Positions 44,807 to 64,000 of a DNA stretch of 64,000 bases are shown one piece after another. The DNA is from an uncultured Chlamydiae bacterium (GTDB lineage: Bacteria; Chlamydiota; Chlamydiia; Chlamydiales; SM23-39): assembly GCA_963828125.1 (NCBI GenBank), contig CAWHDP010000002.1, forward strand, positions 1,600,001 through 1,664,000. The letters run 5' to 3'. Position 1 is the first letter of the stretch. The number at the start of each line of letters is the position of its first letter. Both the position numbers and the translations under genes were made by a program. The notes below the pieces were generated by a model. That model worked only from the letters and a program-made list of their open reading frames with translations, did not search any database and had not been told where the DNA came from.

Positions 44807-44854
44807 TGGCCAGAACTGGAATCGAACCAGCGACACAAGGATTTTCAGTCCCCT
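44807..44854 (-). other. 3' half of tRNA-Phe(GAA), att-like remnant
   Basis: AGGGGACTGAAAATCCTTGTGTCGCTGGTTCGATTCCAGTTCTGGCCA: anticodon arm, T arm and 3' acceptor strand; no D arm or 5' acceptor strand upstream. Confidence 0.85.
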
Positions 44855-44914
44855 CGGGACCGCTTCCTTCTCTCGCCTTTGGTTTCCTAAAATTACCCAA
44901 GGTGATTCAATTCT

Positions 44915-46214: not shown

Positions 46215-46340
46215 ATTCAATTCTATGGTGAACTTTAGATTCTTGGCTACACTTTCTTGGAAATCCAGAGCAACCAAAATCAACCGCCGGAAATCTGCAA
46301 CTCCGTTGAATTTCCGTTATTTTTACGTAGGAAGTAGAGT

Positions 46341-47314
46341 CTATGATTGCTTCTTAGGCTCATCTAAATCGATTTTTGCTTTATGACCATGCTTTTCAAG
46401 CAATTGTAATAGATTTCCTCCGTTGAAAAGCGTCAGAGGCTTGCCATTAGCAAAGCTGTAAGAGTCCGGTCCAAAATCGGAGGTAGTAACAAGAATCCCC
46501 TTGTTAGCCCCCTCATTTAGGACGGTTCCGTATAGATCTCGAACTGCACTAACTCCAACAGGATTCGTATAACGTTTAGCCTGAATAACAATCTTTCCAC
46601 CATGAATAGGATCAGGATTAAATATTACAGCATCAACACCTCCATCTCTACTCGCGCGGGTGACTTTAACCTCACAACCATCTTTTGAAAACTCTTTTTC
46701 AAAAAGCTCTCTAATCAAATGCTCAAAATCTTCCCAATCCATCGTCGCAAGATTGAACGTCTCTTCAAGCTCATTAGCCACATCATAACCTTGAACAAAA
46801 CGATGATCTGGTTTTTGAATCTGCAAAATAGGAGTAATAGCAGCCAGGCTAAAAAGTTTGGAACTTCCAATTCCTTTTAGAAATTTGAAACACATTTTAG
46901 GATCAATATTTAATAAATTAATCATCTGAAATTCATTTTTTTTGCAGTGCAACGACATAACGCATGGGTTAATTTCTTGACCTGTACTTCTATTGATCGA
47001 TCGAACCCAACCATTGAAAATCACTGCTTCTGTCGCATTTGCTGAATCAGCTCTAAATATCTCGTAAACAGTGCGAAGTGTGATTTGATACAACACATCA
47101 TCATACAACTTAGAATGATCAGAACTGCTCATTGATTTTTCAACAATTTCATTTCGAGATTTATTATATTTATACTCTTTTGAATTATTTATTAAATCAG
47201 GACCAGGCAAACAATAATCAACAAGAATAGTTTTTGTTTCTTGTACATATTCAACTCTAAAATCCTTAGGAAAATATTCCGGATATTCAGAAATCTCAAG
47301 AATCGTTGAAAAAT
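46341..47314 (-). pseudogene. Mrr-like restriction endonuclease, 5'-truncated by ISAs1
   Basis: MDWEDFEHLIRELF, SRDGGVDA, IVIQAKRY, VSAVRDLYG, KGILVTTS; frame stays open up to the IS end at 47315. Confidence 0.85.
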
Positions 47315-48267
47315 CAGGGCGTTCTGATGAAAAAGATTTGACAGGTTTCTCAAGTTTTTCTTGATCGTTAATTGAATTTTTATGTTTTCATTTCTCCAAC
47401 AGGAGAATGAAACCATGCCCAAACGACCGACAAAAGACCCTAAGTTTGCTGAATTAAAACAGGATGTTGATTTAGAGCAGTTTGCAGCTTCCGTTAGAGG
47501 AGCTTTCCAAGATGCTGATGATCCAAGGCAGGTCGTTAAGACGAGATACCCATTCTGGTTTTTGATGCTACTTTTGCTCTGTGGATACCTCAGCGGTTGC
47601 AATACTGTGTCGGATTTAACCATCTATGCCGAGCTTAATATTGGGTGGATCAATACGCTGATCAAACAGACGTTTACAGCGCCGTCCTATGACACACTAT
47701 GGTGGCTCCTTGTAAGATTATCGCCGGCTACCTTCAAACTGCTGCTTCAGAAATGGTTTGCAAATATTCCTCAACAATTCCGTGATCAACTACTTATCAT
47801 TGACGGCAAGCGTCTAAAAGGGGCATCTACCGATGAGCATATGGTGCATCTTGTCGAGCTGTTCGCTGCCGAACAAAGACTGGTGTTGGCTCAGGAGAAA
47901 GTACCCGACAAATCATCTGAACCAAAAGTTGTCGAGGCTCTGCTAAAAGACATTGATGTGAGTGGGGCTCTGATTTCGACGGATGCGCTGTTTGCCCATA
48001 TTGCACATGCCCAGAAGTTTTTGGATCACGACGCCGATTATTTGATTGGACTCAAAGGAAACCAGGGCAATTTCCATGCGGAAACGAAGAACTTTTTCGA
48101 TCAAGCTCGAGATGTTGACTACGAAGAGGTCGATGTGGAGCGATTTATTTCGTTAGAAAAAGGCCATGGCCGGATTGAGCAACGATCGATATGTCAGGCG
48201 ACAGTGTAAAATGACCCCCTTTCGACATTGAAAAGTGACCCACCCCCTATTTGAAGTGAGAGTAAGC

Positions 48268-49557
48268 ATGGAACCCAATAAAATCTCTGCTGTTGTAACA
48301 GGAGACAGTAAAGAGAGAATGGAACCACCTAATGTCGTAGAGAAAATTTTATATTTGTCATCAGAAGGGTGGGGTAAAAGACGGATTGCCAAAGAGCTTG
48401 GAATTAGTGCCAATACCGTTAAACACTACCGGCGACAAGGGAAATGGCGCCCGTATAATATTCCCAAAAGAATTAAGAGGCTGGAAGCATTAGATGTCTG
48501 GCTCGAAGAAATGTTTAACCTCCATAAAGGTAATGCAGAGGTTATCCGCCAAGAGTTGGTTCGTCAACACAATCTGCAAGCTGATCTACGCACTGTCGAA
48601 AGAGCAGTTAAACTATTTAGACAAAGGGCCTTTGCTTCAGCAAAGGCGACGATTCGGTTTGAGACGCCGCCGGGCAAGCAGATGCAAATTGACTTTGGAT
48701 CGGTTACTATCAAGATTGCAGGAGAGCCGAAGAAGATCTATTTTTTCGCGGCAGTTCTTGGTTTTTCACGCCGCCAATATATACAGGCCTTTATCCATGA
48801 ACGACAATCGGCCTGGTTTGAGGGGCTTGAAGGAGCCTTTAACCATTTTGGAGGGATCCCATCAGAAGTCTTAATGGACAATCCAAAGCCACTTGTTATC
48901 AGTCACAACCCGCAGACACGAGAAGTGGTGTTCAATGAACGCCTACATGCGTTTGCTAACTATTGGAAATTCAAGCCCAAAGCATGCGCCCCTTATAGAG
49001 CAAGAACGAAGGGGAAGGACGAAAACACGGTCAAATATTTTAAGTATAATGGAATTGCCGGAAGGGAGTTCTCAAGCTGGGAGGCTCTTGGCGAACATAT
49101 CGTTTGGTGGATGAGAGATATTTCAGACCTCAGAATCCATGGGACTACTGGAGAAAAACCAATCGATCGCTTTGAGAAAGAAGAAAAAGCTGTTCTTCAA
49201 CCGCTAAATGGGAAGCCACCTTTCTACTTGGGAAGAGAGATGCAAAGATCGGTCCATACGGATGCTTGTGTGGAGGTGGATACAAATTTTTACAGTGTGC
49301 CATGGCACTTCATTAAAAAAGAGGTCACAGTACAATTAACCGAAACTGAAGTCAAAATCCTCTATGATGCTGACGAAATAGCCCGTCACCCTGTCTGCAT
49401 AGGAGAGAGGCAACGCTCCATCAATCCTCATCATTTAAAGGGAATCGTAGGGGCTAATTGGTGCATGAAAACGGAAGTTCCAAATGCTCCAATCAAACCT
49501 GCCGAGCTGCTTCGTCCTCTTACCGAGTATGAAGCTATTACCGGAGGAGGTTGGTAA
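48268..49557 (+). CDS. istA: IS21 transposase IstA
   Basis: RFETPPGKQMQIDFG, LMDNPK, RTKGKDE, RIHGTT; start codon uncertain. Confidence 0.93.
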   Translation: MEPNKISAVVTGDSKERMEPPNVVEKILYLSSEGWGKRRIAKELGISANTVKHYRRQGKWRPYNIPKRIKRLEALDVWLEEMFNLHKGNAEVIRQELVRQHNLQADLRTVERAVKLFRQRAFASAKATIRFETPPGKQMQIDFGSVTIKIAGEPKKIYFFAAVLGFSRRQYIQAFIHERQSAWFEGLEGAFNHFGGIPSEVLMDNPKPLVISHNPQTREVVFNERLHAFANYWKFKPKACAPYRARTKGKDENTVKYFKYNGIAGREFSSWEALGEHIVWWMRDISDLRIHGTTGEKPIDRFEKEEKAVLQPLNGKPPFYLGREMQRSVHTDACVEVDTNFYSVPWHFIKKEVTVQLTETEVKILYDADEIARHPVCIGERQRSINPHHLKGIVGANWCMKTEVPNAPIKPAELLRPLTEYEAITGGGW

Positions 49558-50348
49558 TGACCATCAATCATGAAAATCTTGTAGCTACACTCCACCGATT
49601 GAAACTTTCAACTATCCGAGACAAACTCGACAACCTTCTCGATGAAGCATCTCGTAAGAAAATGAATTTACGAGAAGCTCTAGCTTTTTTTTGCGAACAA
49701 GAAATGCAGCAGAGAGAACACACCCGTAATCGCCGTGGATTCTCGATGGCTAAATTCCCCTATGCAAGAACTCTTGAACAGTTTGATTTTAGTGCGCAGC
49801 CATCATTGGATGCCGGTCAAATACGCGAACTTGGAACTTGTCGTTGGATTGCCAATGGAGATGCTCTTCTGTTATTAGGCCCTCCTGGAGTTGGGAAAAC
49901 TCATTTAGCTGTTGCGCTTGGCAATGAAGCCATTCGGTTAGGATACACAGTTCTTTTTACTCCGGCGACCACTCTTTTGACCCAGCTCGCTCGGGCTCAC
50001 CAAGAAGGTCGTCTTGAAGACAGGATTGTTTGGTATTCGAAACCCAAATTGCTGATTATCGATGAACTTGGATATCTTCCCTTTGATCCGAAAGCGGCTC
50101 ATTTATTTTTTCAGTTGATCTCCCGACGATACGAGAAAGGAAGTACCTTAATTACGAGTAATCGTTCAGTCAGCGAATGGGGGGAAGTTTTTGGCGATAC
50201 TGTAGTTGCAACAGCAATTTTAGATCGCCTCTTGCATCACAGCCATGTAGTCACTATTCGCGGAGAAAGTTATCGGCTGAAAGAAAAACGAAAATCTGGA
50301 TTGGTTAAAACAACAGTCCTTCAATCGGAGACTCCAGAAGGGAAGTAA
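49557..50348 (+). CDS. istB: IS21 helper ATPase IstB
   Basis: GPPGVGKTHLA, LLIIDELGY, ITSNR, AILDRLLHH, GESYR. Confidence 0.95.
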   Translation: MTINHENLVATLHRLKLSTIRDKLDNLLDEASRKKMNLREALAFFCEQEMQQREHTRNRRGFSMAKFPYARTLEQFDFSAQPSLDAGQIRELGTCRWIANGDALLLLGPPGVGKTHLAVALGNEAIRLGYTVLFTPATTLLTQLARAHQEGRLEDRIVWYSKPKLLIIDELGYLPFDPKAAHLFFQLISRRYEKGSTLITSNRSVSEWGEVFGDTVVATAILDRLLHHSHVVTIRGESYRLKEKRKSGLVKTTVLQSETPEGK

Positions 50349-51014
50349 AAAATTTAGTTTTCGCCCCTCCCCCATGGGGGAGGGGGCCTCCTCTCTCCTT
50401 CGGTGGAAGAGAAGTATTGTGCCTCAGCACCAACTCAGAGCTTTGCATATCCTCTGACTACCGCTAAAGCACCAATATGGCTGTCGTTAGGCAGCCTTAG
50501 TCATTAAAAAAAAGATTGGGGGTGGGTCACTTTTCAATGTCGCCGGTGGGTCACTTTCTGGTGTCGCTTGACACGATATGTGTATGCACAGCTCTGGATT
50601 GGTTACCTCAAGCAAGCACTTGGCCCGGGCTAAAGACCATTGTCGAAGTGCTGTCCGAAAGAGAGATAGATAACAAGAAAACTTCTGAAATCCGGTACTA
50701 CTTTTCGAGTCGCAGAGCGACAGCGAAAGAATTTGCAGGATGGATTCGAGGTCATTGGTCAATCGAGAATCCGTTACATTGGGTATTGGATGTGATTTTT
50801 AGGGAAGATCCCGCCCAAGCAAAGATCGGATTCATTGCCGAAAATATGGCATTTTTTAGGCGGCTGTCGATGAATATCATAAAAACTGCAGACCCTGGTC
50901 GTGGGTTTGCTGATGCTCGAAGATTTTGCACCTACGAGCCAAAATATTTGAGAGGAATTTTGAGCAAGATATTTGTGGGATAGTCTATCAAATCTTTTTC
51001 ATCAGAAGGCCCTG

Positions 51015-52152
51015 TCTCTCTTTCGGACAGCACTTCGACAATAGACCTCTTGCATAACTAAGGGTTCGTCGCTTTTTGGGATTATTTTGGCCAATTTTCG
51101 CTTCTTCTGTTGGGGGTAATATACGAGTGTTGATATTACCCCCAACAGAAGAAGCGAAAATTGGCTCAAAAGAACCCAAAAAGCGACAGAACATTAGTTA
51201 TGCAAGAGGTCTAATGGTCTTTAGCCCGGGCCAAGTGCTTGCTTGAGGTAACCAATCCAGAGCTGTGCATACACATATCGATCGTTGCTCAATCCGGCCA
51301 TGGCCTTTTTCTAACGAAATAAATCGCTCCACATCGACCTCTTCGTAGTCAACATCTCGAGCTTGATCGAAAAAGTTCTTCGTTTCCGCATGGAAATTGC
51401 CCTGGTTTCCTTTGAGTCCAATCAAATAATCGGCGTCGTGATCCAAAAACTTCTGGGCATGTGCAATATGGGCAAACAGCGCATCCGTCGAAATCAGAGC
51501 CCCACTCACATCAATGTCTTTTAGCAGAGCCTCGACAACTTTTGGTTCAGATGATTTGTCGGGTACTTTCTCCTGAGCCAACACCAGTCTTTGTTCGGCA
51601 GCGAACAGCTCGACAAGATGCACCATATGCTCATCGGTAGATGCCCCTTTTAGACGCTTGCCGTCAATGATAAGTAGTTGATCACGGAATTGTTGAGGAA
51701 TATTTGCAAACCATTTCTGAAGCAGCAGTTTGAAGGTAGCCGGCGATAATCTTACAAGGAGCCACCATAGTGTGTCATAGGACGGCGCTGTAAACGTCTG
51801 TTTGATCAGCGTATTGATCCACCCAATATTAAGCTCGGCATAGATGGTTAAATCCGACACAGTATTGCAACCGCTGAGGTATCCACAGAGCAAAAGTAGC
51901 ATCAAAAACCAGAATGGGTATCTCGTCTTAACGACCTGCCTTGGATCATCAGCATCTTGGAAAGCTCCTCTAACGGAAGCTGCAAACTGCTCTAAATCAA
52001 CATCCTGTTTTAATTCAGCAAACTTAGGGTCTTTTGTCGGTCGTTTGGGCATGGTTTCATTCTCCTGTCGGAGAAATGAAAACATAAAAATTCAATTAAC
52101 GATCAAGAAAAACTTGAGAAACCTGTCAAATCTTTTTCATCAGAACGCCCTG
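51015..52152 (-). mobile_element. Second ISAs1-family IS (copy B), inverted and 3'-truncated
   Basis: Near-identical reverse complement of copy A from its left IR (ending 52152); interrupted by a MITE and cut off at 51015 by the right end of copy A. Confidence 0.9.
51043..51212. mobile_element. 170-bp palindromic MITE
   Basis: Termini AGACCTCTTGCATAACTA / TAGTTATGCAAGAGGTCT; almost fully self-complementary; 3-bp AAT duplication shown by the empty site GACCATTGTC in ISAs1 copy A. Confidence 0.9.
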
Positions 52153-52285
52153 CCTCGACTCCCCTTTCCCAACTACTCTCTTAAATCCCAACTACCGATT
52201 TTCTATCGTTTTTTACCAATTTGGTAATTGGGAGAAAATGGTCTACACGGCCTGTAAACGGAAAAAATTAAACCCGAGAGATAAA

Positions 52286-53611
52286 ATGGCAAAGAATAAA
52301 ACCATCAAAGCGGAGGTCCAAACATTTGAGATTGAGACCCCAGAACCAGAATCTGAGATCCTTTTAGAAGAGTTATTCTGGCGTACCGAAACAAGAAAAA
52401 TTAAGGACTTGAAGGAGCATGAGAAAAATCCTCGAAAGATCACTAAGGATCAAATGGAAAAACTCAAGCAGTCGCTCAAGAGCTTTAACTATGTGGAGAC
52501 CATCGTTGTTAACCTAGACAACACTATATTGGCAGGTCACATGAGGATCAGAGCTCTAAAGGCGTTGGGGCGTGGAAAGGAAGAGATTGAGGTTCGAGTT
52601 CCAAACCGACAGCTAACGGCTCGAGAAGCTGAAGAATACCTTATCCGCAGCAATAAAAATTCGGGAGAATGGGATTGGGAGCGCTTGGCTAATGAATGGG
52701 AGGTATCCGATCTGTTCAATTGGGGATTTACTGAAGATGAGCTACAGGTCAAAGACCCCGAGAAGATCGAGGCTGTGGATGATGGCTATGAGGAAGAATT
52801 GCCAGCCGAACCGAAAACCAAGCCTGGGGATATTTACGCCCTCGGCAGGCATCGGCTCATTTGTGGGTCTGCCACAATCCATGGAGACATTGAGAAGGTT
52901 CTCGATTCGGAGTTGATTGATCTTGTCATTACAGACCCCCCTTACAATGTAGCTTATAAGGGTGGAACAAAGGACAAGCTGACCATCAAAAATGATGATC
53001 TGTCAGCGGAGGAGTTCGAGGCTCTTTTGAGAGATTTCTACGTCAATGCTTTCGTGTTTATGAAAGAGGGCTCTGGGATCTATGTCTTTCACGCCGATTC
53101 AGAGGGAGAGAAATTCCGCCGATTTTTCCGCGAGGCGAATCTGAAGATGACTCAATGCCTTATTTGGTTGAAGAACTCTTTTGTGCTCGGACGTCAAGAT
53201 TATCAATGGCAGCACGAGCCGGTCCTATTTGGAGGCAAAGAATACAGCGATCACGATCCTGTTCTCTATGGATGGAAAGAGGGGGAAAAGCATCGTTGGT
53301 ATAACAATCGCAAACAGACCACACTTCTTAAATTTGATCGACCTCAGCGAAATGCCGAGCACCCCACAATGAAACCTATTCCCTTGATTGGGTATCTTAT
53401 CAATAACAGCTCTAAAAAAGACGACCTTGTCTTTGACTTCTTTCTAGGCTCAGGAACCACGCTGATTGCTGCAGAACAACTTGGGCGCTGCTGCTTTGGC
53501 TGCGAGCTCGATCCAAGATATTGCGATGTGATCGTCGAGCGCTACAAAAAGTACAAGATGCAAAAAAACGAACTCTGCGAAATCAAGCTGAATGGAGAAG
53601 CGTATGCCTAG
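52286..53611 (+). CDS. Phage-type DNA methyltransferase (ParB-like N-terminal domain plus N6/N4-MTase)
   Basis: NPRKIT...ILAGHMR; LGRHRLICG, TDPPYN, HPTMKP, DFFLGSGTT, CELDPRYCDVIV. Confidence 0.9.
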   Translation: MAKNKTIKAEVQTFEIETPEPESEILLEELFWRTETRKIKDLKEHEKNPRKITKDQMEKLKQSLKSFNYVETIVVNLDNTILAGHMRIRALKALGRGKEEIEVRVPNRQLTAREAEEYLIRSNKNSGEWDWERLANEWEVSDLFNWGFTEDELQVKDPEKIEAVDDGYEEELPAEPKTKPGDIYALGRHRLICGSATIHGDIEKVLDSELIDLVITDPPYNVAYKGGTKDKLTIKNDDLSAEEFEALLRDFYVNAFVFMKEGSGIYVFHADSEGEKFRRFFREANLKMTQCLIWLKNSFVLGRQDYQWQHEPVLFGGKEYSDHDPVLYGWKEGEKHRWYNNRKQTTLLKFDRPQRNAEHPTMKPIPLIGYLINNSSKKDDLVFDFFLGSGTTLIAAEQLGRCCFGCELDPRYCDVIVERYKKYKMQKNELCEIKLNGEAYA

Positions 53612-54080
53612 GAAACCCACGGGAAGACCGAACGGGCGCCCTAAAAAGACGGTCAAACCTCCTGTAGATCCAAAAGCGCCACCTGCTGAATGGAAAGGAA
53701 CGATCCCAGAAAAGGAAATCAACCTCGATCAGGTGCTTTATTGGACCGAATTGCAAGCAACCGCGGAAGAAATTGCGGGCGCTTTTCGGGTCAGTGTTGA
53801 CACTTTGGATCGAAGGTTGAGGGAGGCTTTCGGTATGGGTTTTGCGGAGTTAAGAAAAAGGTGCAATGGGCTTCATAAACTCTCCCTCCGACGATACCAA
53901 TTCCAGCAAGCCGAGCGCAATGCAACGATGGCAATTTGGCTTGGAAAGATCTGGCTCGGACAACGAGAGACGATCATCACCGAAACGATTGTGAAGGAGG
54001 AGGATTCCGTTCGCATTTACATCCCCGATAATGGCAGGGGCGATTGTATCGAAGAGAAGGTGGAGGATCCAAATGCTTGA
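53604..54080 (+). CDS. Probable terminase small subunit (HTH protein)
   Basis: GRPNGRPKK, ATAEEIAGAFRVSVDTL, SLRRYQFQQA..NATMAIWLGK..LGQ; overlaps both methylase and terL. Confidence 0.7.
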   Translation: MPRKPTGRPNGRPKKTVKPPVDPKAPPAEWKGTIPEKEINLDQVLYWTELQATAEEIAGAFRVSVDTLDRRLREAFGMGFAELRKRCNGLHKLSLRRYQFQQAERNATMAIWLGKIWLGQRETIITETIVKEEDSVRIYIPDNGRGDCIEEKVEDPNA

Positions 54081-55422
54081 AATCACGCCACAAGAAGGAC
54101 CGCAGCATCAGTTTTTGAATTCATCTGCAGATATCGTGATCTATGGAGGAGCTGCCGGAGGCGGCAAAACGTACGCCCTCTTGATAGAGTGCTTACGCCA
54201 TCGCAACGTTCCTGGCTTCTCAGCCGTTGTCTTTCGCCGCAATAGCACACAGGTTCGCAATCCAGGTGGTCTGTGGGATACAAGCTGCGAGCTTTTTCCA
54301 TATGTCAACGGCACACCAAAAGAATCGACCCTTGAATGGGATTTTCGAGGGAAAGGTAAGGTTAAGTTTGCCCATCTGGAGCATGACAAGACGCGTTTTG
54401 ATTGGCAAGGGGCTCAAATTTCCTTGATTGGATTCGATGAATTGACTCATTTTTCTTGGGCGCAGTTCGTCTATATGCTCTCGAGAAATCGATCAACTTG
54501 TGGAGTCAAGCCGTATATCCGCGCGACCACGAACCCCGATACTGACTCGTGGGTTCGTCAGTTCATCGCCTGGTGGATCGATGATTACTCTGGATACCCC
54601 ATTCCTGCGAGAAGCGGCAAGACGCGCTGGTTCTTCATTCAAAATGATGAGACCATTTGGGGCGCAAGTCGGGAAGAATTGATAGAAAAAGACCCAAATT
54701 GCCTGCCGAAGAGCGTTTCTTTCGTCGCATCTACCGTGCATGATAACAAAATTCTGCTAGAGAAAGATCCAGGCTACCTCGCCAACCTTAAAGCGCTGCC
54801 ACGCTTTGAGAGAGAACAATTGCTCATGGGAAATTGGAATGTGCGGCCCACTGCGGGAATGTTCTTCCAAAGGGGCTTCTTTGAAGTCGTCAAGGCGATT
54901 CCAAAAGGAGGGACAAAGGTGGTTCGCTACTGGGATCGCGCCGCCACAAAGAAGACAGAGAGCAATGACCCTGATTATACCGTAGGGATTCGACTTGAAA
55001 AGGACAAAAACAACCTCTTGTACGTCACCGATATGGTTAGAATCCAACAGAGCCCTCTAGGCGTCCAAACGACGATTAAAAATACGGCCAGCCAGGATGG
55101 CATTGGGATTCGGATTGGAATTGAGCAAGACCCAGGTCAAGCAGGAGTAAGCGAAGCTGATTATCTCGTCAGAATGCTCCAAGGCTATAATGTAAAAACG
55201 TTCAAAGCTACACAGGATAAGGTCACAAGAGCTCTTCCAGTGTCATCGCAAGCAGAGGCTGGAAATATCAAAATCTTGCAAGCCCCATGGAATGAAGATT
55301 TTTTGAGGGAACTTGAGAACTTTCCTGAAGGAGGACATGACGATATCGTTGATGCGTTAAGCGGGGCTTTTTTGATGCTTACCGACTCTGCATACGATTT
55401 AGCATCCTTAACCGTGCTTTAA
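54073..55422 (+). CDS. terL: Phage terminase large subunit
   Basis: PQEGPQ, YGGAAGGGKT, IGFDELTHF, ATTNP, RYWDRAAT, DYTVG, EQDPGQAG, KVTRA, FPEGGHDDIVDA. Confidence 0.9.
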   Translation: MLEITPQEGPQHQFLNSSADIVIYGGAAGGGKTYALLIECLRHRNVPGFSAVVFRRNSTQVRNPGGLWDTSCELFPYVNGTPKESTLEWDFRGKGKVKFAHLEHDKTRFDWQGAQISLIGFDELTHFSWAQFVYMLSRNRSTCGVKPYIRATTNPDTDSWVRQFIAWWIDDYSGYPIPARSGKTRWFFIQNDETIWGASREELIEKDPNCLPKSVSFVASTVHDNKILLEKDPGYLANLKALPRFEREQLLMGNWNVRPTAGMFFQRGFFEVVKAIPKGGTKVVRYWDRAATKKTESNDPDYTVGIRLEKDKNNLLYVTDMVRIQQSPLGVQTTIKNTASQDGIGIRIGIEQDPGQAGVSEADYLVRMLQGYNVKTFKATQDKVTRALPVSSQAEAGNIKILQAPWNEDFLRELENFPEGGHDDIVDALSGAFLMLTDSAYDLASLTVL

Positions 55423-55471
55423 CTTAAAACTCTAATATTAAATAAGATAAAGTAAATAAACTATTTGAAAA

Positions 55472-55518
55472 TGTAACACAGACACCCACTTGATCTAAAT
55501 GGGTGTTTCTGTTACAAT
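55472..55518 (+). promoter_or_regulatory. Promoter and inverted-repeat operator of the abiE operon
   Basis: IR TGTAACACAGACACCCA / TGGGTGTTTCTGTTACA; TTGATC-17 bp-TACAAT with extended TG; ATG 6 bp after the -10 box. Confidence 0.7.
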
Positions 55519-55524
55519 TCAGTT

Positions 55525-56121
55525 ATGATTAAATCAAAGTATATAGCTGCATTCCAGATGCTCTCAAAAAGACCCGTTTTTTCCTCTGCAGAAGGAAAAG
55601 AAGCAGGAATCCCCTCTAGGATGCTTGCTTATTTTTGCTCAAAGGGACAGATCGAACGTGTCGGTAGGGGTATTTATAGGGTCAAACATATTGATTTTGA
55701 TCGCGACTTCGAATGGGAAGACCTCGTCCTCACCGCCTTGAGCATTCCTAATGGTGTCATATGTCTCATCTCAGCCCTATGCTATTACGGTTTAACAGAT
55801 GAAATTATGAGAGAGTTTTGGATTGCTGTCCCCCATTCTACTACCTCTCCTGCCAGAGAAAATGCTCATATTGTCCGGATGCGTAACATCTCTTTCGGAC
55901 AAACCACTATTAAAATTGGCAGCCAGAAGCTCAAAATTTTTGACCGAGAACGGACTATCGTGGATTCTTTCCGTTACCTGGACAAAGAAACCGCTTTAAA
56001 GGCGCTGCAAGCGTATTTAAAAACAAGCAAAGACAGAAAACCAGACATCGATAAGCTTCTAAGATATGCGAAGAAGCTTAGGGTCGATCTAACCCCTTAC
56101 ATTTCGGCATTTACAATATGA
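55525..56121 (+). CDS. abiEi: Type IV TA antitoxin AbiEi
   Basis: IERVGRGIY, GVICLISAL.YYGLTD, FDRERTIVDSFR, ALKALQAYL. Confidence 0.88.
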   Translation: MIKSKYIAAFQMLSKRPVFSSAEGKEAGIPSRMLAYFCSKGQIERVGRGIYRVKHIDFDRDFEWEDLVLTALSIPNGVICLISALCYYGLTDEIMREFWIAVPHSTTSPARENAHIVRMRNISFGQTTIKIGSQKLKIFDRERTIVDSFRYLDKETALKALQAYLKTSKDRKPDIDKLLRYAKKLRVDLTPYISAFTI

Positions 56122-56978
56122 AATCTGCAATCGAGCAATCAATCAAAGAAAAAATCAAAGCCTTAGCTAAGGAGAGGGAAACCACCTTTGCAGAACTTTG
56201 GAGGAATCTGATCTTGGAGAGGTTCCTGACGCGTTTAGCGCGATCTTCCTATAGGGAAAAGTTTGTTTTGAAAGGAGGAACGCTCTTGGCAAAATACATC
56301 CATCTTGGAAGGGAGACGCAGGATCTCGATTTTTTCATTCAGAAGCTATCGAATACCGAACAGTCTTTAAGGACTGTTTTACAAGCAATTTGCGATATCG
56401 ATGCTAATGATAGCTTCGCTTTCGAAGTGGCTAAAATCAAAATCCTCGATCACTCTCAGCTTGCATATACAGGAGCTGAAATTACTCTGCAGGCACTGTT
56501 CGGCGCCACCAAGACGGTCATACGCATGGATTTAGGATTTGGCGACCGCGTGAAGCCGATTGAATATCCAATGGACTTGACTGCTACATCGAAAGGCCCT
56601 CTCTTCGAAAGCAGAATTTCTCTACACTGTTATCCAAAAGAATTCATTTTTGCAGAGAAATTAGAAACAGTAGTTTTCCGAGGAGGCGGCAACACCAGGA
56701 TGAAAGATTTCCATGATCTTTATTCGCTAATTCGGTTGGACGTTCTCGATAGCTCTCTTGCAAAGAAAGCCGTCCAGCTGGTTTTTCATCACAGAAAAAC
56801 TCCGCTGAAGAAACTGCCGGTTGCGTTCGGCAAGGATGCTTTCGAAACACTTGAGAAAAACTGGACTTCCTACCAAAGAAAAATCAAAGCGAAAAAAGGC
56901 GCCCTTAAACTGCCTGAATCGATAGAGGACGTGATCTCAGTCCTGAATCAATGGCTGGAAGAAAATGCATTCTCCTAA
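56118..56978 (+). CDS. abiEii: Type IV TA toxin AbiEii (nucleotidyltransferase)
   Basis: LERFLTRL, FVLKGG, RETQDLDF, DLGFGD, AEKLE, NTRMKDFHDL; ATGA overlap with abiEi. Confidence 0.9.
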   Translation: MKSAIEQSIKEKIKALAKERETTFAELWRNLILERFLTRLARSSYREKFVLKGGTLLAKYIHLGRETQDLDFFIQKLSNTEQSLRTVLQAICDIDANDSFAFEVAKIKILDHSQLAYTGAEITLQALFGATKTVIRMDLGFGDRVKPIEYPMDLTATSKGPLFESRISLHCYPKEFIFAEKLETVVFRGGGNTRMKDFHDLYSLIRLDVLDSSLAKKAVQLVFHHRKTPLKKLPVAFGKDAFETLEKNWTSYQRKIKAKKGALKLPESIEDVISVLNQWLEENAFS

Positions 56979-57272
56979 TTCGAAGAAGCCCCTACACATT
57001 CTTTTTCGTAAAGCATCTGGATAGCATCGCAGGCGATCATCGAACGATCGATCTTCCTATCTTTTCTGAGGCGATGAATATAAAGCTCTGTAAACGCCTT
57101 CTCAGCCTCTGCAGTCAAATAGACCGTAGCTTTGAACTTTTTCTTATTTCTGTTTTGAAGTTCTTTGACTATTTGCCCGCTCATGTCTTTGACGTTGTCA
57201 GGCGACAGTGTAAAATGACCCCCTTTCGACATTGAAAAGTGACCCACCCCCCTATTTGAAGTGAGAGTAAGC

Positions 57273-58562
57273 ATGGAACCCAATAAAATCTCTGCTGTTG
57301 TAACAGGAGACAGTAAAGAGAGAATGGAACCACCTAATGTCGTAGAGAAAATTTTATATTTGTCATCAGAAGGGTGGGGTAAAAGACGGATTGCCAAAGA
57401 GCTTGGAATTAGTGCCAATACCGTTAAACACTACCGGCGACAAGGGAAATGGCGCCCGTATAATATTCCCAAAAGAATTAAGAGGCTGGAAGCATTAGAT
57501 GTCTGGCTCGAAGAAATGTTTAACCTCCATAAAGGTAATGCAGAGGTTATCCGCCAAGAGTTGGTTCGTCAACACAATCTGCAAGCTGATCTACGCACTG
57601 TCGAAAGAGCAGTTAAACTATTTAGACAAAGGGCCTTTGCTTCAGCAAAGGCGACGATTCGGTTTGAGACGCCGCCGGGCAAGCAGATGCAAATTGACTT
57701 TGGATCGATTACTATCAAGATTGCAGGAGAGCCGAAGAAGATCTATTTTTTCGCGGCAGTTCTTGGTTTTTCACGCCGCCAATATATACAGGCCTTTATC
57801 CATGAACGACAATCGGCCTGGTTTGAGGGGCTTGAAGGAGCCTTTAACCATTTTGGAGGGATCCCATCAGAAGTCTTAATGGACAATCCAAAGCCACTTG
57901 TTATCAGTCACAACCCGCAGACACGAGAAGTGGTGTTCAATGAACGCCTACATGCGTTTGCTAACTATTGGAAATTCAAGCCCAAAGCATGCGCCCCTTA
58001 TAGAGCAAGAACGAAGGGGAAGGACGAAAACACGGTCAAATATTTTAAGTATAATGGAATTGCCGGAAGGGAGTTCTCAAGCTGGGAGGCTCTTGGCGAA
58101 CATATCGTTTGGTGGATGAGAGATATTTCAGACCTCAGAATCCATGGGACTACTGGAGAAAAACCAATCGATCGCTTTGAGAAAGAAGAAAAAGCTGTTC
58201 TTCAACCGCTAAATGGGAAGCCACCTTTCTATTTGGGAAGAGAGATGCAAAGATCGGTCCATACGGATGCTTGTGTGGAGGTGGATACAAATTTTTACAG
58301 TGTGCCATGGCACTTCATTAAAAAAGAGGTCACAGTACAATTAACCGAAACTGAAGTCAAAATCCTCTATGATGCTGACGAAATAGCCCGTCACCCTGTC
58401 TGCATAGGAGAGAGGCAACGCTCCATCAATCCTCATCATTTAAAGGGAATCGTAGGGGCTAATTGGTGCATGAAAATGGAAGTTCCAAATGCTCCAATCA
58501 AACCTGCCGAGCTGCTTCGTCCTCTTACCGAGTATGAAGCTATTACCGGAGGAGGTTGGTAA
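57273..58562 (+). CDS. istA: IS21 transposase IstA
   Basis: As copy 1, with two visible aa substitutions. Confidence 0.93.
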   Translation: MEPNKISAVVTGDSKERMEPPNVVEKILYLSSEGWGKRRIAKELGISANTVKHYRRQGKWRPYNIPKRIKRLEALDVWLEEMFNLHKGNAEVIRQELVRQHNLQADLRTVERAVKLFRQRAFASAKATIRFETPPGKQMQIDFGSITIKIAGEPKKIYFFAAVLGFSRRQYIQAFIHERQSAWFEGLEGAFNHFGGIPSEVLMDNPKPLVISHNPQTREVVFNERLHAFANYWKFKPKACAPYRARTKGKDENTVKYFKYNGIAGREFSSWEALGEHIVWWMRDISDLRIHGTTGEKPIDRFEKEEKAVLQPLNGKPPFYLGREMQRSVHTDACVEVDTNFYSVPWHFIKKEVTVQLTETEVKILYDADEIARHPVCIGERQRSINPHHLKGIVGANWCMKMEVPNAPIKPAELLRPLTEYEAITGGGW

Positions 58563-59353
58563 TGACCATCAATCATGAAAATCTTGTAGCTACACTCCAC
58601 CGATTGAAACTCTCAACTATCCGAGACAAACTCGACAACCTTCTCGATGAAGCATCTCGTAAGAAAATGAATTTACGAGAAGCTCTAGCTTTTTTTTGCG
58701 AACAAGAAATGCAGCAGAGAGAACACACCCGTAATCGCCGTGGATTCTCGATGGCTAAATTCCCCTATGCAAGAACTCTTGAACAGTTTGATTTTAGTGC
58801 GCAGCCATCATTGGATGCCGGTCAAATACGCGAACTTGGAACTTGTCGTTGGATTGCCAATGGAGATGCTCTTCTGTTATTAGGCCCTCCTGGAGTTGGG
58901 AAAACTCATTTAGCTGTTGCGCTTGGCAATGAAGCCATTCGGTTAGGATACACAGTTCTTTTTACTCCGGCGACCACTCTTTTGACCCAGCTCGCTCGGG
59001 CTCACCAAGAAGGTCGTCTTGAAGACAAGATTGTTTGGTATTCGAAACCCAAATTGCTGATTATCGATGAACTTGGATATCTTCCCTTTGATCCGAAAGC
59101 GGCTCATTTATTTTTTCAGTTGATCTCCCGACGATACGAGAAAGGAAGTACCTTAATTACGAGTAATCGTTCAGTCAGCGAATGGGGGGAAGTTTTTGGC
59201 GATACTGTAGTTGCAACAGCAATTTTAGATCGCCTCTTGCATCACAGCCATGTAGTCACTATTCGCGGAGAAAGTTATCGGCTGAAAGAAAAACGAAAAT
59301 CTGGATTGGTTAAAACAACAGTCCTTCAATCGGAGACTCTAGAAGGGAAGTAA
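58562..59353 (+). CDS. istB: IS21 helper ATPase IstB
   Basis: As copy 1, with two visible aa substitutions. Confidence 0.95.
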   Translation: MTINHENLVATLHRLKLSTIRDKLDNLLDEASRKKMNLREALAFFCEQEMQQREHTRNRRGFSMAKFPYARTLEQFDFSAQPSLDAGQIRELGTCRWIANGDALLLLGPPGVGKTHLAVALGNEAIRLGYTVLFTPATTLLTQLARAHQEGRLEDKIVWYSKPKLLIIDELGYLPFDPKAAHLFFQLISRRYEKGSTLITSNRSVSEWGEVFGDTVVATAILDRLLHHSHVVTIRGESYRLKEKRKSGLVKTTVLQSETLEGK

Positions 59354-59808
59354 AAAATTTAGTTTTCGCCCCTCCCCCATGGGGGAGGGGGCCTCCTCTC
59401 TCCTTCGGTGGAAGAGAAGTATTGTGCCTCAGCACCAACTCAGAGCTTTGCATATCCTCTGACTACCGCTAAAGCACCAATATGGCTGTCGTTAGGCAGC
59501 CGTAGTCATTAAAGAAAAGATTGGGGGTGGGTCACTTTTCAATGTCGCCGGTGGGTCACTTTCTGGTGTCGCTTGACAGACGTCTTGCTGTATTAACGCT
59601 TGCTCTTGTTCGCTCATATTCCCCTAAGCCTTTTTACTGGTTTATTAATAAGATGTATAAACGACAAGGGCACCTTGTGTCAACAGACGTTTAGCCGCCT
59701 TGTGCCTAAGCTGGTATAAGATTGATAATATATAAGACGACTTAGCGATAACGATACGAGATCGTCAAAACTTTGTGTTGCCACGAAAGAAAGGGTAGGC
59801 TATCTTTT

Positions 59809-59836
59809 CTTGTTTATAAAGCCGCTTATAAACAAG
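59809..59836. other. dif-like tyrosine-recombinase site (11-6-11)
   Basis: CTTGTTTATAA AGCCGC TTATAAACAAG: perfect 11-bp arms, asymmetric 6-bp spacer, inner ATAA/TTAT. Confidence 0.6.
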
Positions 59837-59847
59837 TTGAGGCAAAT

Positions 59848-60021
59848 GTGATCCAAAAGGAACCCAAAGACTCAAAGTCTCAAGAAAAAAACTCGGAAGC
59901 CAAAAAAATTGATATTGCGATCATCACGACTCTGCCCGGATCACCAATTCAAGGGATAATCTGCAGAGAAGAGCATAAAAAGTTGTTCGAAGGTCTTTGG
60001 GGAAGGAAGCAAAGATCATGA
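59848..60021 (+). CDS. Small hypothetical protein coupled to the recombinase
   Basis: GTG at 59848 after GAGG; ATGA overlap with the recombinase start. Confidence 0.35.
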   Translation: MIQKEPKDSKSQEKNSEAKKIDIAIITTLPGSPIQGIICREEHKKLFEGLWGRKQRS

Positions 60022-60995
60022 CTCTAATGCCAGCAGTTTTAGATCTTCCAGTCCCCTCTCATTTGGACACCTATGAGCAGGCCGCATCATTCAAGACCAA
60101 TTTGGTTTGGAAGCAATTGGATGAAACCTCTGTAGAGGAGGCCCTCTCCTATTGGCTACCGACTTTGAGTCCAAAGACTCAGCTGAACTATAGATCTGGC
60201 ATCAAAAAGCTGATTGAACTCGGATGGCTTAATCCCCTTATGAGTTTGCAGCAATTTGCTTTGGTCAACCATGAAGGCGTAATCGACCGCATTAAACTCT
60301 TCCAGGATTGGGCTGAGACTACTAGACAGGCACGGGCAGCCTGCTACATCTCGTTTACTGGATTTTTAAGCCGCCGTCTTCAGGGTGTTATAAAAAAGGC
60401 CGTTCCAAGCAGGGAAGGCAATGCAAAGACGTTCTTCAGTGTATATGAGAAGGTGAAAACGAATGCGATGACTCAGGCGCAGTGGATTTTATTCTTCAGG
60501 GAATTGGAGAAAATCAACCCTCGCGACTGCCTGATTGGAAAGATCATCTTGCAAGGAGGAAAGAGGGTTAACGAGGTGCTGTCTTTGCAAACCAGTCAAA
60601 TCGATTGGGATCGCTGCGAGATTACCTTTGCTCAGTCGAAAATGAGAAGGCTTAAGAAAGAGACTGTGATTACATATCCAGAGAGCATCATGAAACGGCT
60701 TAGAGAATACATTGGGGAAAGAACCGGTCACGTATTTGTAACCAGATCAGGAAAGCCCGTTATGATGAATCAGCTAGCCATGACTTTTGCAAAGGCTGGC
60801 AGGGCTGCCGGTATTCCATTCAAAGTTTCTCCTCATGTGCTGAGGGCTTCTGCTGTGACCTACCTTAAGCAGCAAGGTTTCCAAGACAGCGATATCATGA
60901 GAGTCACTGGCCATTCCACATCGGAAATGGTTTTTGCCTATGACAAGTCCTCGCGTGCAGATAATGCGAGTAAAAAAGTAAACTTAATATCCTAG
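60018..60995 (+). CDS. Tyrosine recombinase, homologue of chlamydial plasmid Pgp8 (pGP8-D)
   Basis: QARAACYISFT, LQGGKRVNEVLSL, VFVTRSGK, IPFKVSPHVLRA, DSDIMRVTGH...FAYDKSSRADNASKK; catalytic R, HxxR, H and Y intact. Confidence 0.9.
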   Translation: MTLMPAVLDLPVPSHLDTYEQAASFKTNLVWKQLDETSVEEALSYWLPTLSPKTQLNYRSGIKKLIELGWLNPLMSLQQFALVNHEGVIDRIKLFQDWAETTRQARAACYISFTGFLSRRLQGVIKKAVPSREGNAKTFFSVYEKVKTNAMTQAQWILFFRELEKINPRDCLIGKIILQGGKRVNEVLSLQTSQIDWDRCEITFAQSKMRRLKKETVITYPESIMKRLREYIGERTGHVFVTRSGKPVMMNQLAMTFAKAGRAAGIPFKVSPHVLRASAVTYLKQQGFQDSDIMRVTGHSTSEMVFAYDKSSRADNASKKVNLIS

Positions 60996-61083
60996 GGGCT
61001 TTAATGAACGCGAATAGAAACAAAGCGCTTGACCCAAACAGTTACCGCAAATTTTTAGAATGAATTATAAAGGAAGTATCAAG

Positions 61084-61890
61084 ATGAAAAAATTTCTCGC
61101 TTTAAGCTTGCTCTGTTTTCAATGTATCTATGGGAATCAACCTCTTGAAGAGTACTTCTCATACGTTAAACAATTGGGCCAATCTAACGGAAATTATCGA
61201 GAAGGAGAAATTGAAATCGTCACTGACCTTACAGAAATTTCCAAGATCCAAAAAGTGCAGGAAAACCGTCTGCTACAAAAGGGATTTTCTGCAGATAAGG
61301 CATTAGAATTTAGCCGAATAGGTGTTGTAAATGAAGATCAGTATTGGATTTGGCTGCGCGATGCTGTCTATTTTCCTCAAGGAGTTCCAGGGACATACGA
61401 CCGACTGCTATGGAGAAGTGAATTAAAGGGTAAGTTTCCTGGGGTAGCTGTTTTGCCGATTTTGCCTTCTGGTCAGATCGTATTGATTTTAAACTATCGA
61501 CACGCTACGCGCTCTTGGGAGCTTGAACTTCCTCGAGGAGGAATGGAGTCTCAAGAAACGCTTGAAGAAGCAGCATTTCGCGAATTAAAAGAGGAAACGG
61601 GATTAGTAGCATCTTCTGTGGCTTTTTTAGGTGAAATAGCGACGGATACGGGAGTACATTCTTCCGTGATTCCAGTCTTTATCGGGAAAATCTCTACTCA
61701 AGAAGAGTCTAGCCCTGAATATTCTGAGGCAATTGCTGGCGTTATTTCTTTCACAAAAGATGAACTAAAAAAAGGCTTAGTACAGGGCTTTCTAGAGGTG
61801 TCTATCCAAGGCAAGAAAAAACAAATTCCAATTCGCGATGCATTTTTGACTTTTGCTTTGCTTCAAGCAGAATGTCGTAATTTGCTTTAG
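61084..61890 (+). CDS. NUDIX hydrolase (ADP-ribose pyrophosphatase-like) with signal peptide
   Basis: MKKFLALSLLCFQCIYG leader; canonical Nudix box GGMESQETLEEAAFRELKEETG. Confidence 0.85.
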   Translation: MKKFLALSLLCFQCIYGNQPLEEYFSYVKQLGQSNGNYREGEIEIVTDLTEISKIQKVQENRLLQKGFSADKALEFSRIGVVNEDQYWIWLRDAVYFPQGVPGTYDRLLWRSELKGKFPGVAVLPILPSGQIVLILNYRHATRSWELELPRGGMESQETLEEAAFRELKEETGLVASSVAFLGEIATDTGVHSSVIPVFIGKISTQEESSPEYSEAIAGVISFTKDELKKGLVQGFLEVSIQGKKKQIPIRDAFLTFALLQAECRNLL

Positions 61891-61917
61891 AGCCTCCATG
61901 CAACTGGATAAAATTAT

Positions 61918-62970
61918 ATGGAGGATTTTTTGAAATTATATATTCCAACCACAAGCTCACCAGCTTTAGAAAAGGCTAATTTTCCTATTTTTTCTCCGAA
62001 CCAGCTGCCGAGTGACTTAAAACTAAAAGAGGCTAGCTTTAGACCAGAAAACCCTAAGCGTGAATATCCAAGATGCTCGTTAAAACTGATGTTGAAAAGC
62101 GAAAGCACCGAAAAAGTGCTGTATATTAAAGAGTTCAACTATGATTGGGCACCCCCTGCTTATGATTGTCCTTCACTCTGGAAGAACCACGAAGCATTTG
62201 CAGCTGAAGATACGCCAGAACCTCAACCTCATTTGATCGAAAATGATGTGCTATGGATAGGCGTTAATTACAGAAATCAGAGAGCGGCCTCTATAACTAA
62301 GGACAGGACTACTATAGAGATGGTTGGCGATTTTTCAGATCTGGAATTTATTCACATTGCTGAAGGTCTAAAAGCCCTTGATAAAGATCAACGAGGACGA
62401 ATTCTCTCAAAGAGTTTTGCGGAACTGAGCTATGGGTATCCAAGGGCGGTGGAAGCTGTAAATGTCCCCATAAGCTTTTGGAAATTTCCAGTGGAGGGTA
62501 GTCAAATAAAATTTCAGACGGCTTTTATGAAGCCTAATATTCCGACGGAAGCGATTGTAGGCCACCTGCCATTACCAAGCGACAGCAGCTACAAATTGGA
62601 CTCTGTTTTCTCCTACCATTCTGGAAATGCTCCATCAGAAGATAGTCGGTATAATTTTATCTATGAACATGAAGAACACAAAGGGCATACAATCCAGCTG
62701 CAACACGTGCATAAAGACTCCCCTGCTGCATGTGCATTCCCTCCAGTTCCAGATAAAACTCAGAAATTTAAGACCATGTCGAAGAAAGTTGGTGGCATAG
62801 ATTGTTACTATGCATATAGATCAGAAAGTTACGGTCCACATGAGCTTATCTTCCAGCGCGAAAATTTCAGATATCTAATGCTGGTTAAGCCTGCAAGTTG
62901 GACGAGCAGAGAATGGTTTTTTAAGTTTTTAGGGATTTTCCTCAAATGCCATGATGGGTCTATTATCTAG
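61918..62970 (+). CDS. Hypothetical protein
   Basis: 350-aa ORF co-oriented with the NUDIX gene; no family recognised. Confidence 0.7.
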   Translation: MEDFLKLYIPTTSSPALEKANFPIFSPNQLPSDLKLKEASFRPENPKREYPRCSLKLMLKSESTEKVLYIKEFNYDWAPPAYDCPSLWKNHEAFAAEDTPEPQPHLIENDVLWIGVNYRNQRAASITKDRTTIEMVGDFSDLEFIHIAEGLKALDKDQRGRILSKSFAELSYGYPRAVEAVNVPISFWKFPVEGSQIKFQTAFMKPNIPTEAIVGHLPLPSDSSYKLDSVFSYHSGNAPSEDSRYNFIYEHEEHKGHTIQLQHVHKDSPAACAFPPVPDKTQKFKTMSKKVGGIDCYYAYRSESYGPHELIFQRENFRYLMLVKPASWTSREWFFKFLGIFLKCHDGSII

Positions 62971-63013
62971 AAGAAATACGAAAATTTAATGAAGCAAAAT
63001 CAGAGGCAAAGCA

Positions 63014-63532
63014 TTAGAGATTCTCTTTTAGAGCATCTCTAATCTGAAAAAGAATGGATTCTTCAAGCTCAAAAGACCGGTCATACGGGGCATAGTTTGA
63101 CCCCCAACGAGTATCTTTAAAGATGACCCCGGCAAACTCGCGCGAACCTTCGTAGCGCGGCACGATATGTACATGGATGGCTGGAGAGGTGTTACTTAAG
63201 GCTGCATAGTTCATTTTGTCCGGTTGGAAAAGAGTTTTAAGAGCAGCTTTGACATCCGCCCCTATCTGGAAAAACTCATCGCGAGCCTCCCCTTCTATGG
63301 CCAGAAAATCTTCCACCCCCTTCTCATTCTTGAGAAGGACAAAGACACGCCCCAAGTAGCATTGGTTTTCATGGAGATATAGATCCCAATGTTTGTAGGA
63401 TTTGATTTTCAAAAGTTCGTAGTCCACGTTACTCTCCTTCTCTTGTACATGAGAGGCCGCCTGCATTGGAGTGGCCCAAGTTATGCAAAAGGCACCAAGA
63501 ATAAGAAACAAATAATTTCTGAAACGGCGCAT
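63014..63532 (-). CDS. HIT family nucleotide hydrolase with signal peptide
   Basis: NQCYLGR, FQPDKMNYAALSN, AIHVHIVPRY; N-terminal hydrophobic leader. Confidence 0.8.
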   Translation of the reverse strand: MRRFRNYLFLILGAFCITWATPMQAASHVQEKESNVDYELLKIKSYKHWDLYLHENQCYLGRVFVLLKNEKGVEDFLAIEGEARDEFFQIGADVKAALKTLFQPDKMNYAALSNTSPAIHVHIVPRYEGSREFAGVIFKDTRWGSNYAPYDRSFELEESILFQIRDALKENL

Positions 63533-63729
63533 AATTGTAATCATTACTTTAAACACATGAATAATTGAATGATAAACGATCAACTTAGATCAAAACAATA
63601 CATAAAAACATTTTTTTCTCTAAATCTTCAAAACCTTCCCAACGGGATTGGATGGGTAGGTTTTGATGACTACGGATCTAATTGGGAAACAGCTGTTTCC
63701 CTATTTTCAACTTATTCAATGTCAGTGGA

Positions 63730-64000
63730 TTAAATGTTTTTAAACAAATCATCTAGGATCGCCTCGTTGGAGATAAGCTCTTCCGAATACATAGTGGGTT
63801 TTAAGCCCATCGTGGTGATCATAGAGAAAAAGAGCTGTTTTTTTGTCTTCGTTTGTTTCCTAAACACTTCCATTTTCTTTAAAATTTCTTGTGCACAGGA
63901 TTTGTCGATAGCGAATGGTTTGTCCGAATATTTAATTTCGCAAAGAGTAATCGCCCCATCCAGTCGATCAAAAAGAAGGTCTATTTGTGCTCCATCTTCT
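63730..64000 (-). CDS. C-terminus of an AAA ATPase / PD-(D/E)xK fusion protein, partial
   Basis: Hand translation: EDGAQIDLLFDRLDGAITLCEIKYSDKPFAIDK...MITTMGLK...LDDLFKNI*. Confidence 0.75.
   Translation of the reverse strand, partial: EDGAQIDLLFDRLDGAITLCEIKYSDKPFAIDKSCAQEILKKMEVFRKQTKTKKQLFFSMITTMGLKPTMYSEELISNEAILDDLFKNI

Follow-up and report, generated by a model that had tools for sequence, protein, structure and literature searches.

A conserved 11-6-11 palindrome upstream of chlamydial Pgp8-family genes, a probable recombinase site in a Cre/loxP-like plasmid system

A perfect 11-6-11 palindrome precedes a Pgp8-family tyrosine recombinase gene in a 64,000-nt stretch of an uncultured Chlamydiae genome (hereafter the window; Table 1), and counterparts with the same layout lie upstream of homologous genes across the phylum. 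The palindrome is real and conserved, and very probably the target of Pgp8. The reading that we favour, at a probability of about 0.72 and from sequence comparison, is that the adjacent Pgp8 recognises the palindrome as its cognate core site in a one-protein, Cre/loxP-like plasmid multimer-resolution system, and that the palindrome doubles as an operator. Binding of Pgp8 to the palindrome is highly likely, and recombination there is likely too. Each 11-bp arm would take one Pgp8 monomer, four identical subunits would pair two sites on a plasmid dimer, and Pgp8 would cut and rejoin across the 6-bp spacer to bring the dimer back to monomers, as Cre does at loxP for P1, while bound Pgp8 would repress or damp transcription of its own gene.

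Table 1. Features of the window, with the positions of site B in Chlamydia plasmid loci
Feature	Position	Strand	Remarks
Candidate Pgp8 core recombination site and operator	59809..59836		11-6-11 palindrome; kept upstream of homologues
Left arm	59809-59819		
Spacer	59820-59825		
Right arm	59826-59836		
Pgp8-family tyrosine recombinase	60018..60995	+	325 aa; core-binding and catalytic domains; R183 K208 H273 R276 H299 Y308
Putative promoter	59778..59806	+	-35 at 59778-59783, 17 bp, -10 at 59801-59806; ends 2 bp before left arm
Leader ORF	59848..60021	+	57 aa, no known family; GAGG ahead; stop overlaps recombinase start
Small divergent gene	56975..59617	-	83 aa in relatives; strand-helix-helix by eye; split here by IS21
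IS21-family element	57196..59578	+	5-bp target duplication; outside the system
Plasmid-derived block	52158..57143	+	DNA methylase, small gene, terminase large subunit, AbiEi/AbiEii; colinear with Criblamydia plasmid, ~80% identical
tRNA-Phe 3'-end copy, 45 bp	44807..44851		left border of island holding module
Site B (Chlamydia plasmid loci)	L024:1077-1104; L025:7548 onward; L072:1411-1438; L073:1037-1064		

The palindrome reads CTTGTTTATAA-AGCCGC-TTATAAACAAG, with arms complementary at 11/11 positions, a non-palindromic, asymmetric 6-bp spacer and the inner ATAA-N6-TTAT signature also found in chlamydial dif, and it ends 181 bp 5' of the recombinase ATG; the layout, signature and distance of some 180 bp described in the initial annotation are all borne out. 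It is single-copy in the 2.37-Mb genome (no second copy at up to 6 mismatches), and no perfect 11-6-11 repeat arises in 5000 base shuffles of 59579-60017. As 10 perfect repeats with arms of at least 11 and a 6-bp gap occur in the genome, several of them drawn from a dispersed repeat family, the weight of the palindrome rests on its conservation rather than on rarity. A dispersed palindromic family of more than 30 copies, with ~20-bp arms, an 8-bp gap and in some cases longer inserts, is found on contigs C1 and C2 (e.g., C2:157862-157909), and two 11/11 palindromes on C1 resemble rRNA terminators, judged by context.

The recombinase belongs to the phage-integrase family PF00589, and its full-length plasmid matches are chlamydial, with 90% identity to the Criblamydia plasmid integrase, 58–59% to Waddlia and Simkania, and 45–51% to Chlamydia Pgp8; it is placed outside the Pgp7 clade (support 1.00; deep nodes weak), so its earlier designation as Pgp8-like stands. 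The R-K-H-R-H/W-Y catalytic set is complete, its residues being retained in 73–79 of 79 Pgp8-like proteins, and the predicted model (pLDDT 90) has a core-binding plus catalytic fold whose Foldseek matches are XerA, XerH on difH, IntI4, the lambda Int core and Cre, at 12–22% identity. By catalytic set and predicted fold, the protein qualifies as a simple tyrosine recombinase without an arm-binding domain. All Xer family models score it far below cut-off (74 bits versus 220 for XerA, 26 versus 267 for XerS). The Pgp7/Pgp8 family is reported to be restricted to chlamydiae (PMC7846284), and Pgp8 to be the least variable plasmid protein across 524 C. trachomatis plasmids (PMC7143637); the accessible supplement of the latter study yielded no intergenic SNP table.

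The recombinase family was found in 63 of 401 Chlamydiota genomes searched, and these genomes together with named plasmids yield 98 distinct proteins, 19 in the Pgp7 clade and 79 others, a Pgp8-like set that takes in some pseudogenes and one distant integrase. Within 500 bp upstream, 58 of the 79 Pgp8-like genes have a 6-bp-spaced palindrome with 9/11 pairs or more (27 perfect), and 62 have one at a threshold of 8/11, as opposed to 0/19 Pgp7-clade genes at 9/11 or more. Conservation near homologues, which had been proposed as the check on the candidate, therefore holds across the phylum, while the site, suggested as a possible target of the Pgp7/Pgp8 family, is associated with Pgp8 and not with Pgp7. 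Upstream segments ending at the start codon contain the palindrome in 55/79 cases, whereas 10 dinucleotide shuffles average 1.1 and never exceed 2. Among the 79 genes, spacings of 5, 7 and 9 bp give 1, 4 and 2 sites, and an 8-bp gap gives 35 that are mostly the 6-bp sites read one base out; the genes being kin, these counts are not independent trials. Seventeen of the 79 have no site of 8/11 or better within 500 bp, three of which have one 1.1–2.7 kb away behind inserted genes, the remainder being unexplained, truncated or pseudogenes. The site is present at 15 of 19 close loci (20 were found, and a 43-residue fragment was left out), lying within 450 bp in 13 of them and at 1.1 and 2.7 kb in the other two.

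Two of the 58 sites lie more than 400 bp from the gene, probably by chance, and were excluded from the arm table; all of the remaining 56 have A at the fourth arm position and 54 have T at the third (the search pattern itself fixed the innermost A), and the outer positions vary by recombinase clade, both arms changing together. In the reverse direction, 12 of the 401 genomes contain the arm pattern of the window, at 14 places in total; each of these lies upstream of a Pgp8-like gene, the spacers are of nine kinds and there is no orphan copy. At one locus (L006:2026-2053), a second site-like palindrome (8/11, ATAA-N6-TTAT) lies 2.9 kb upstream of the main one, with arms resembling those of locus L078.

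The putative promoter is the sole consensus match in 59560–60060, a result that is weak alone given 0.7 matches in shuffles, and its spacing to the arm is shared by 20 of 21 close relatives, a set chosen beforehand by part of the -35 box. As it ends 2 bp before the left arm, transcription would begin within that arm. The mapped C. trachomatis pgp8 start at -58 (PMC2817459) likewise lies inside the left arm, whose first base is at -60 on the assumption of a shared start codon. The site thus overlaps the transcription start of the recombinase, a position suited to an operator, and bound Pgp8 should repress its own gene. The leader ORF between site and recombinase varies in length among relatives, and other genes are inserted in this interval at loci L017, L019 and L113. 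On the opposite strand, visual inspection suggests a conserved -35/-10 pair directed through the site toward pgp1 (L024:2125-2223 and equivalents); the promoters of pgp8 and pgp1 in Chlamydia plasmids may thus be convergent, with the site between them.

In the window, the module is a stranded plasmid piece within a tRNA-Phe island integrated by another enzyme: further tRNA-Phe 3'-end copies lie beyond the window at C2 1,671,894 and at the tRNA itself (1,678,329), the latter beside a different integrase. Positions 44807 to 64000 of the window together with locus L135 comprise tandem, IS-rich tRNA-Phe islands (3'-end repeats at C2 1,644,807 and 1,671,894) with an Mrr-type nuclease, NUDIX/HIT genes and, close by, two AbiE pairs; a 3275-aa ORF with DUF3638 (27930–37757) lies just left of the low-GC region. 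The joined form free of the insertion sequence is found in contigs of sequencing runs X1 and X4. The small divergent protein that the insertion splits has no Pfam or PDB match, and its monomer model (pLDDT 66) has no fold match at E 0.001. The RHH label given to this protein in the initial annotation found no confirmation in these comparisons.

The pgp8-pgp1 gap of Chlamydia plasmids carries an orthologous site with the centre ATTA-N6-TAAT, in one copy in 18/18 complete plasmids. A second 6-bp-spaced palindrome (site B, ATATAA-N6-TTATA) lies just past the pgp7 stop in 22/22 Chlamydia plasmids, as well as in the plasmids of genomes G141 (perfect, 11/11) and G157, with the spacer TTAAAA in the trachomatis/suis/muridarum group and its reverse complement elsewhere. 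Since both strands of site B carry a TATAAT box, its presence could be explained by conservation of promoters. Outside Chlamydia, a second site downstream of pgp8 is represented by a single weak match, 14 of the 15 matches among 75 genes being Chlamydia site B. Pgp7 itself (e.g., L024:165-1082) looks catalytically degenerate from its sequence: Lys occupies the first catalytic Arg position in 17/19 proteins, with an Arg one residue earlier, the His/Trp position is Leu or Phe in 17/19, the HxxR His is Arg or Ser in 6/19, and the catalytic Tyr is retained in 19/19. With this degenerate set and no upstream site, Pgp7 is unlikely to be a XerC-like partner of Pgp8. The 44-bp duplication of the Swedish variant plasmid pSW2 (L150:1802-1845) begins inside an arm of the Pgp8 site.

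Multimer resolution has already been assumed for Pgp7/Pgp8 of the chlamydial plasmid, and pgp8 deletions are reported to fail in C. trachomatis and C. muridarum (both PMC11895440); the Pgp8 protein is also reported to be unnecessary for C. trachomatis replication (cited in PMC4314687), and a C. psittaci pgp8 deletion was passaged stably, its authors leaving stability without selection open (PMC13711795). The genetics of pgp8 are mixed. A resolvase would matter mainly without selection.

The spacer is found in both orientations. In C. trachomatis, it is GTGAAA in two of six named plasmids (C/TW-3 and Ia/SotonIa1) and its reverse complement, between identical flanks, in the other four (pSW2, pCHL1, L1/224 and E/Bour), these six being the ones compared out of 45 records. 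In C. psittaci, 15 records equal 6BC (TTTCTA) over 116 bp and six differ by four bases; the reverse-complement spacer is present in all four of those six that were compared, and in M56. Plasmid 6BC differs from WC at 7 of 7,553 columns and from CP3 at 6, four of which are the flip. C/TW-3 and Ia/SotonIa1 share the flip and yet differ in 48 clusters, which suggests separate events. The spacer is also flipped relative to its neighbours in the plasmid of genome G013, which has no full-length match among named plasmids, and in one environmental pair. Across 18 comparable repeat loci in 22 plasmids, an exact loop flip is seen at two, namely this site and a terminator loop of 3 bases. Of two further hairpin controls, one with an 11-10-11 layout shows no change in any of the six flipped C. 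psittaci records, and the other, an AT-rich palindrome near the C. trachomatis origin, does show clustered changes. Misaligned recombination between symmetric sites could produce such flips. Polymerase template switching, however, also inverts spacers and equalises arms, as reported in yeast only where the arms exceed 9 bp (PMC8604942), so neither the flips nor the symmetric arm changes amount to proof of recombination, and the flips are suggestive only; the arms of the C. trachomatis site pair over 8. At the site, contigs of four sequencing runs show neither a spacer variant nor a joint, an absence that carries no weight because contigs drop rare variants.

A published recombinant bears on the same question. 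In it, 1058 bp bounded by identical blocks of 26 bp and 27/30 bp were swapped between a C. trachomatis vector and the plasmid of C. muridarum (PMC4314687), in recombinant clones that probably reflect one clonal event. The blocks map to pSW2 697–722 and 1778–1807, and lie 1058 bp apart with the 27-bp form; the second (27/30 bp) is the Pgp8 site, and the first contains site B. They are also the nearest identical stretches outside the selected gene, among 16 blocks of at least 26 bp, and the accessible text uses none of the words site-specific, recombinase or inverted. The flips and the published crossover fit recombination at the site, but both have non-enzymatic explanations as well.

A more elaborate picture, doubtful at present, is that the Chlamydia plasmid is a two-site system active in nature, with site A (the orthologous Pgp8 site) at the pgp8 5' end, and site B where pgp7 stops and an antisense promoter lies. 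The two crossovers of the interspecies recombinant fall within these sites, and the pSW2 duplication starts inside one of the arms of site A. On this view, the spacer flips would be scars of misaligned Pgp8 recombination, Pgp8 would couple dimer resolution to control of its own promoter and those of the replication genes, and Pgp7 would have lost its recombinase activity and taken on a regulatory role at site B.

Several other readings of the palindrome compete with resolution by Pgp8. In one, Pgp8 only represses there—its own gene and, in Chlamydia, the facing pgp1-pgp2 transcription—without strand exchange; the site covers a predicted or mapped transcription start, Pgp8 is reported to lower the expression of some C. 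psittaci genes (PMC13711795), replication error could explain the flips (PMC8604942), and the MrpR protein of phage SP-beta provides a precedent (PMC10516654). However, MrpR has lost recombinase function whereas the Pgp8 clades keep all six catalytic positions, the low variability of Pgp8 and a 6-bp gap fixed phylum-wide point the same way, and repression alone is improbable. It is still less probable, indeed very much so, that the palindrome serves the small divergent protein, or some other regulator, as an operator unrelated to the recombinase: the small gene diverges from the site in close relatives and is matched in 23 of 58 site-bearing loci, but 35 of the 58, including complete eight-gene Chlamydia plasmids, give no match (a short query can miss distant forms), which indicates that the gene is unneeded for retention of the site. 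Chlamydia Pgp4 gives no alignment to the small protein either, and the sole constant neighbour of the site is pgp8.

The host recombinases raise a different issue. The genome encodes XerD and a XerC-like gene and has a match to chlamydial dif (supplement of PMC3025954) at C2 386,489, near the skew maximum at 379,310. The palindrome could in principle be a plasmid-borne substrate of host XerC/XerD, of the cer, psi or pdif type, with Pgp8 a bystander, as its 28-bp layout and inner signature are common to chlamydial dif; this is very unlikely, since the symmetric arms do not include the distinct XerD arm of chlamydial dif, arm sequences follow the Pgp8 tree while dif is constant across families, and Chlamydia plasmids carry ATTA-N6-TAAT instead. 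The presence of some gene-and-site copies on chromosomes might rather suggest an attP for element integration, or chromosome dimer resolution in the manner of XerS/difSL. The palindrome was rejected as the chromosomal dif, because it is not at the terminus (C2 1,659,809, 1.27 Mb from dif and 141 kb from the GC-skew minimum), its arms are symmetric and the host has XerC/XerD and dif elsewhere. It was likewise rejected as attP of the island, because it is whole and single and the island has its own integrase; with genes on both sides in Criblamydia plasmid order and tRNA-Phe repeats bounding the island, the site is not an att junction. There is no partner copy in the genome. Two XerC/D-like genes are retained in all five other genomes whose copies are chromosomal or on large contigs, and four of the five match the dif pattern; an integration or chromosome-resolution role is thus very unlikely.

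Pgp7 and Pgp8 have for decades gone by the name of integrases of the Chlamydia plasmid, and the genetic data on them conflict. Neither an inverted repeat nor a target of these proteins is mentioned in the accessible text of PMC13711795, PMC11895440, PMC7846284, PMC7143637, PMC7259575 and PMC4314687, and that of 10.1101/542381 names Chlamydia only under another subgroup. A literature search found no paper naming a Pgp8 site, its coverage excluding older subscription papers, the 1990s plasmid papers, Gong 2013 and most supplements, so that an earlier mention is possible. With a defined 28-bp candidate site, Pgp7/Pgp8 activity becomes testable in vitro and in E. coli, and the expected model shifts from a XerC/XerD-like pair to one active enzyme and a degenerate paralogue. 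Constructs cut in the pgp8-pgp1 gap call for caution, as they may disrupt a cis site, and the environmental recombinase–site pairs, with their differing arms, form a natural series.

Among known systems, Pgp7/Pgp8 (CDS1/CDS2) of chlamydial plasmids belong to the same protein family as the window recombinase, and a symmetric site tied to Pgp8 alone, beside a degenerate Pgp7, fits poorly with a XerC/XerD-like pair. MrpR (YopR), a tyrosine-recombinase fold acting at promoter DNA, is a possible model for Pgp7 (PMC10516654), but not for Pgp8 with its full catalytic set. XerC/XerD-dif, XerS/difSL, XerH/difH and XerA share the 28-bp layout, 6-bp spacer and inner ATAA/TTAT, and XerA and XerH are the best structural matches; in contrast to these systems, the protein here is far below family cut-offs and the site is off the terminus and plasmid-borne in a host that keeps XerC/XerD and dif, while XerC/XerD-dif moreover has two different arms, one with the XerD consensus. 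In XerS systems, difSL adjoins xerS. The initial annotation had suggested a single homomeric recombinase, with XerS/difSL as a precedent, and its interpretation is supported; as the host retains XerC/XerD and dif elsewhere, the closer model is plasmid resolution by Cre/loxP rather than chromosome resolution by XerS/difSL. Cre/loxP keeps the low-copy plasmid P1 monomeric (PMC2409434), and in 8 of 17 reported tests a palindrome no more than 1 kb from a Cre-type gene turned out to be a true target (PMC10250229). As in P1, there is one recombinase, a palindromic site near its gene, an asymmetric spacer and one site per replicon; unlike Cre/loxP, the layout is 11-6-11 instead of 13-8-13, identity to Cre is 12–14% in structural alignment, and the site overlaps the transcription start of the gene. 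The window system would therefore appear to work like Cre/loxP without being a member of the Cre family.
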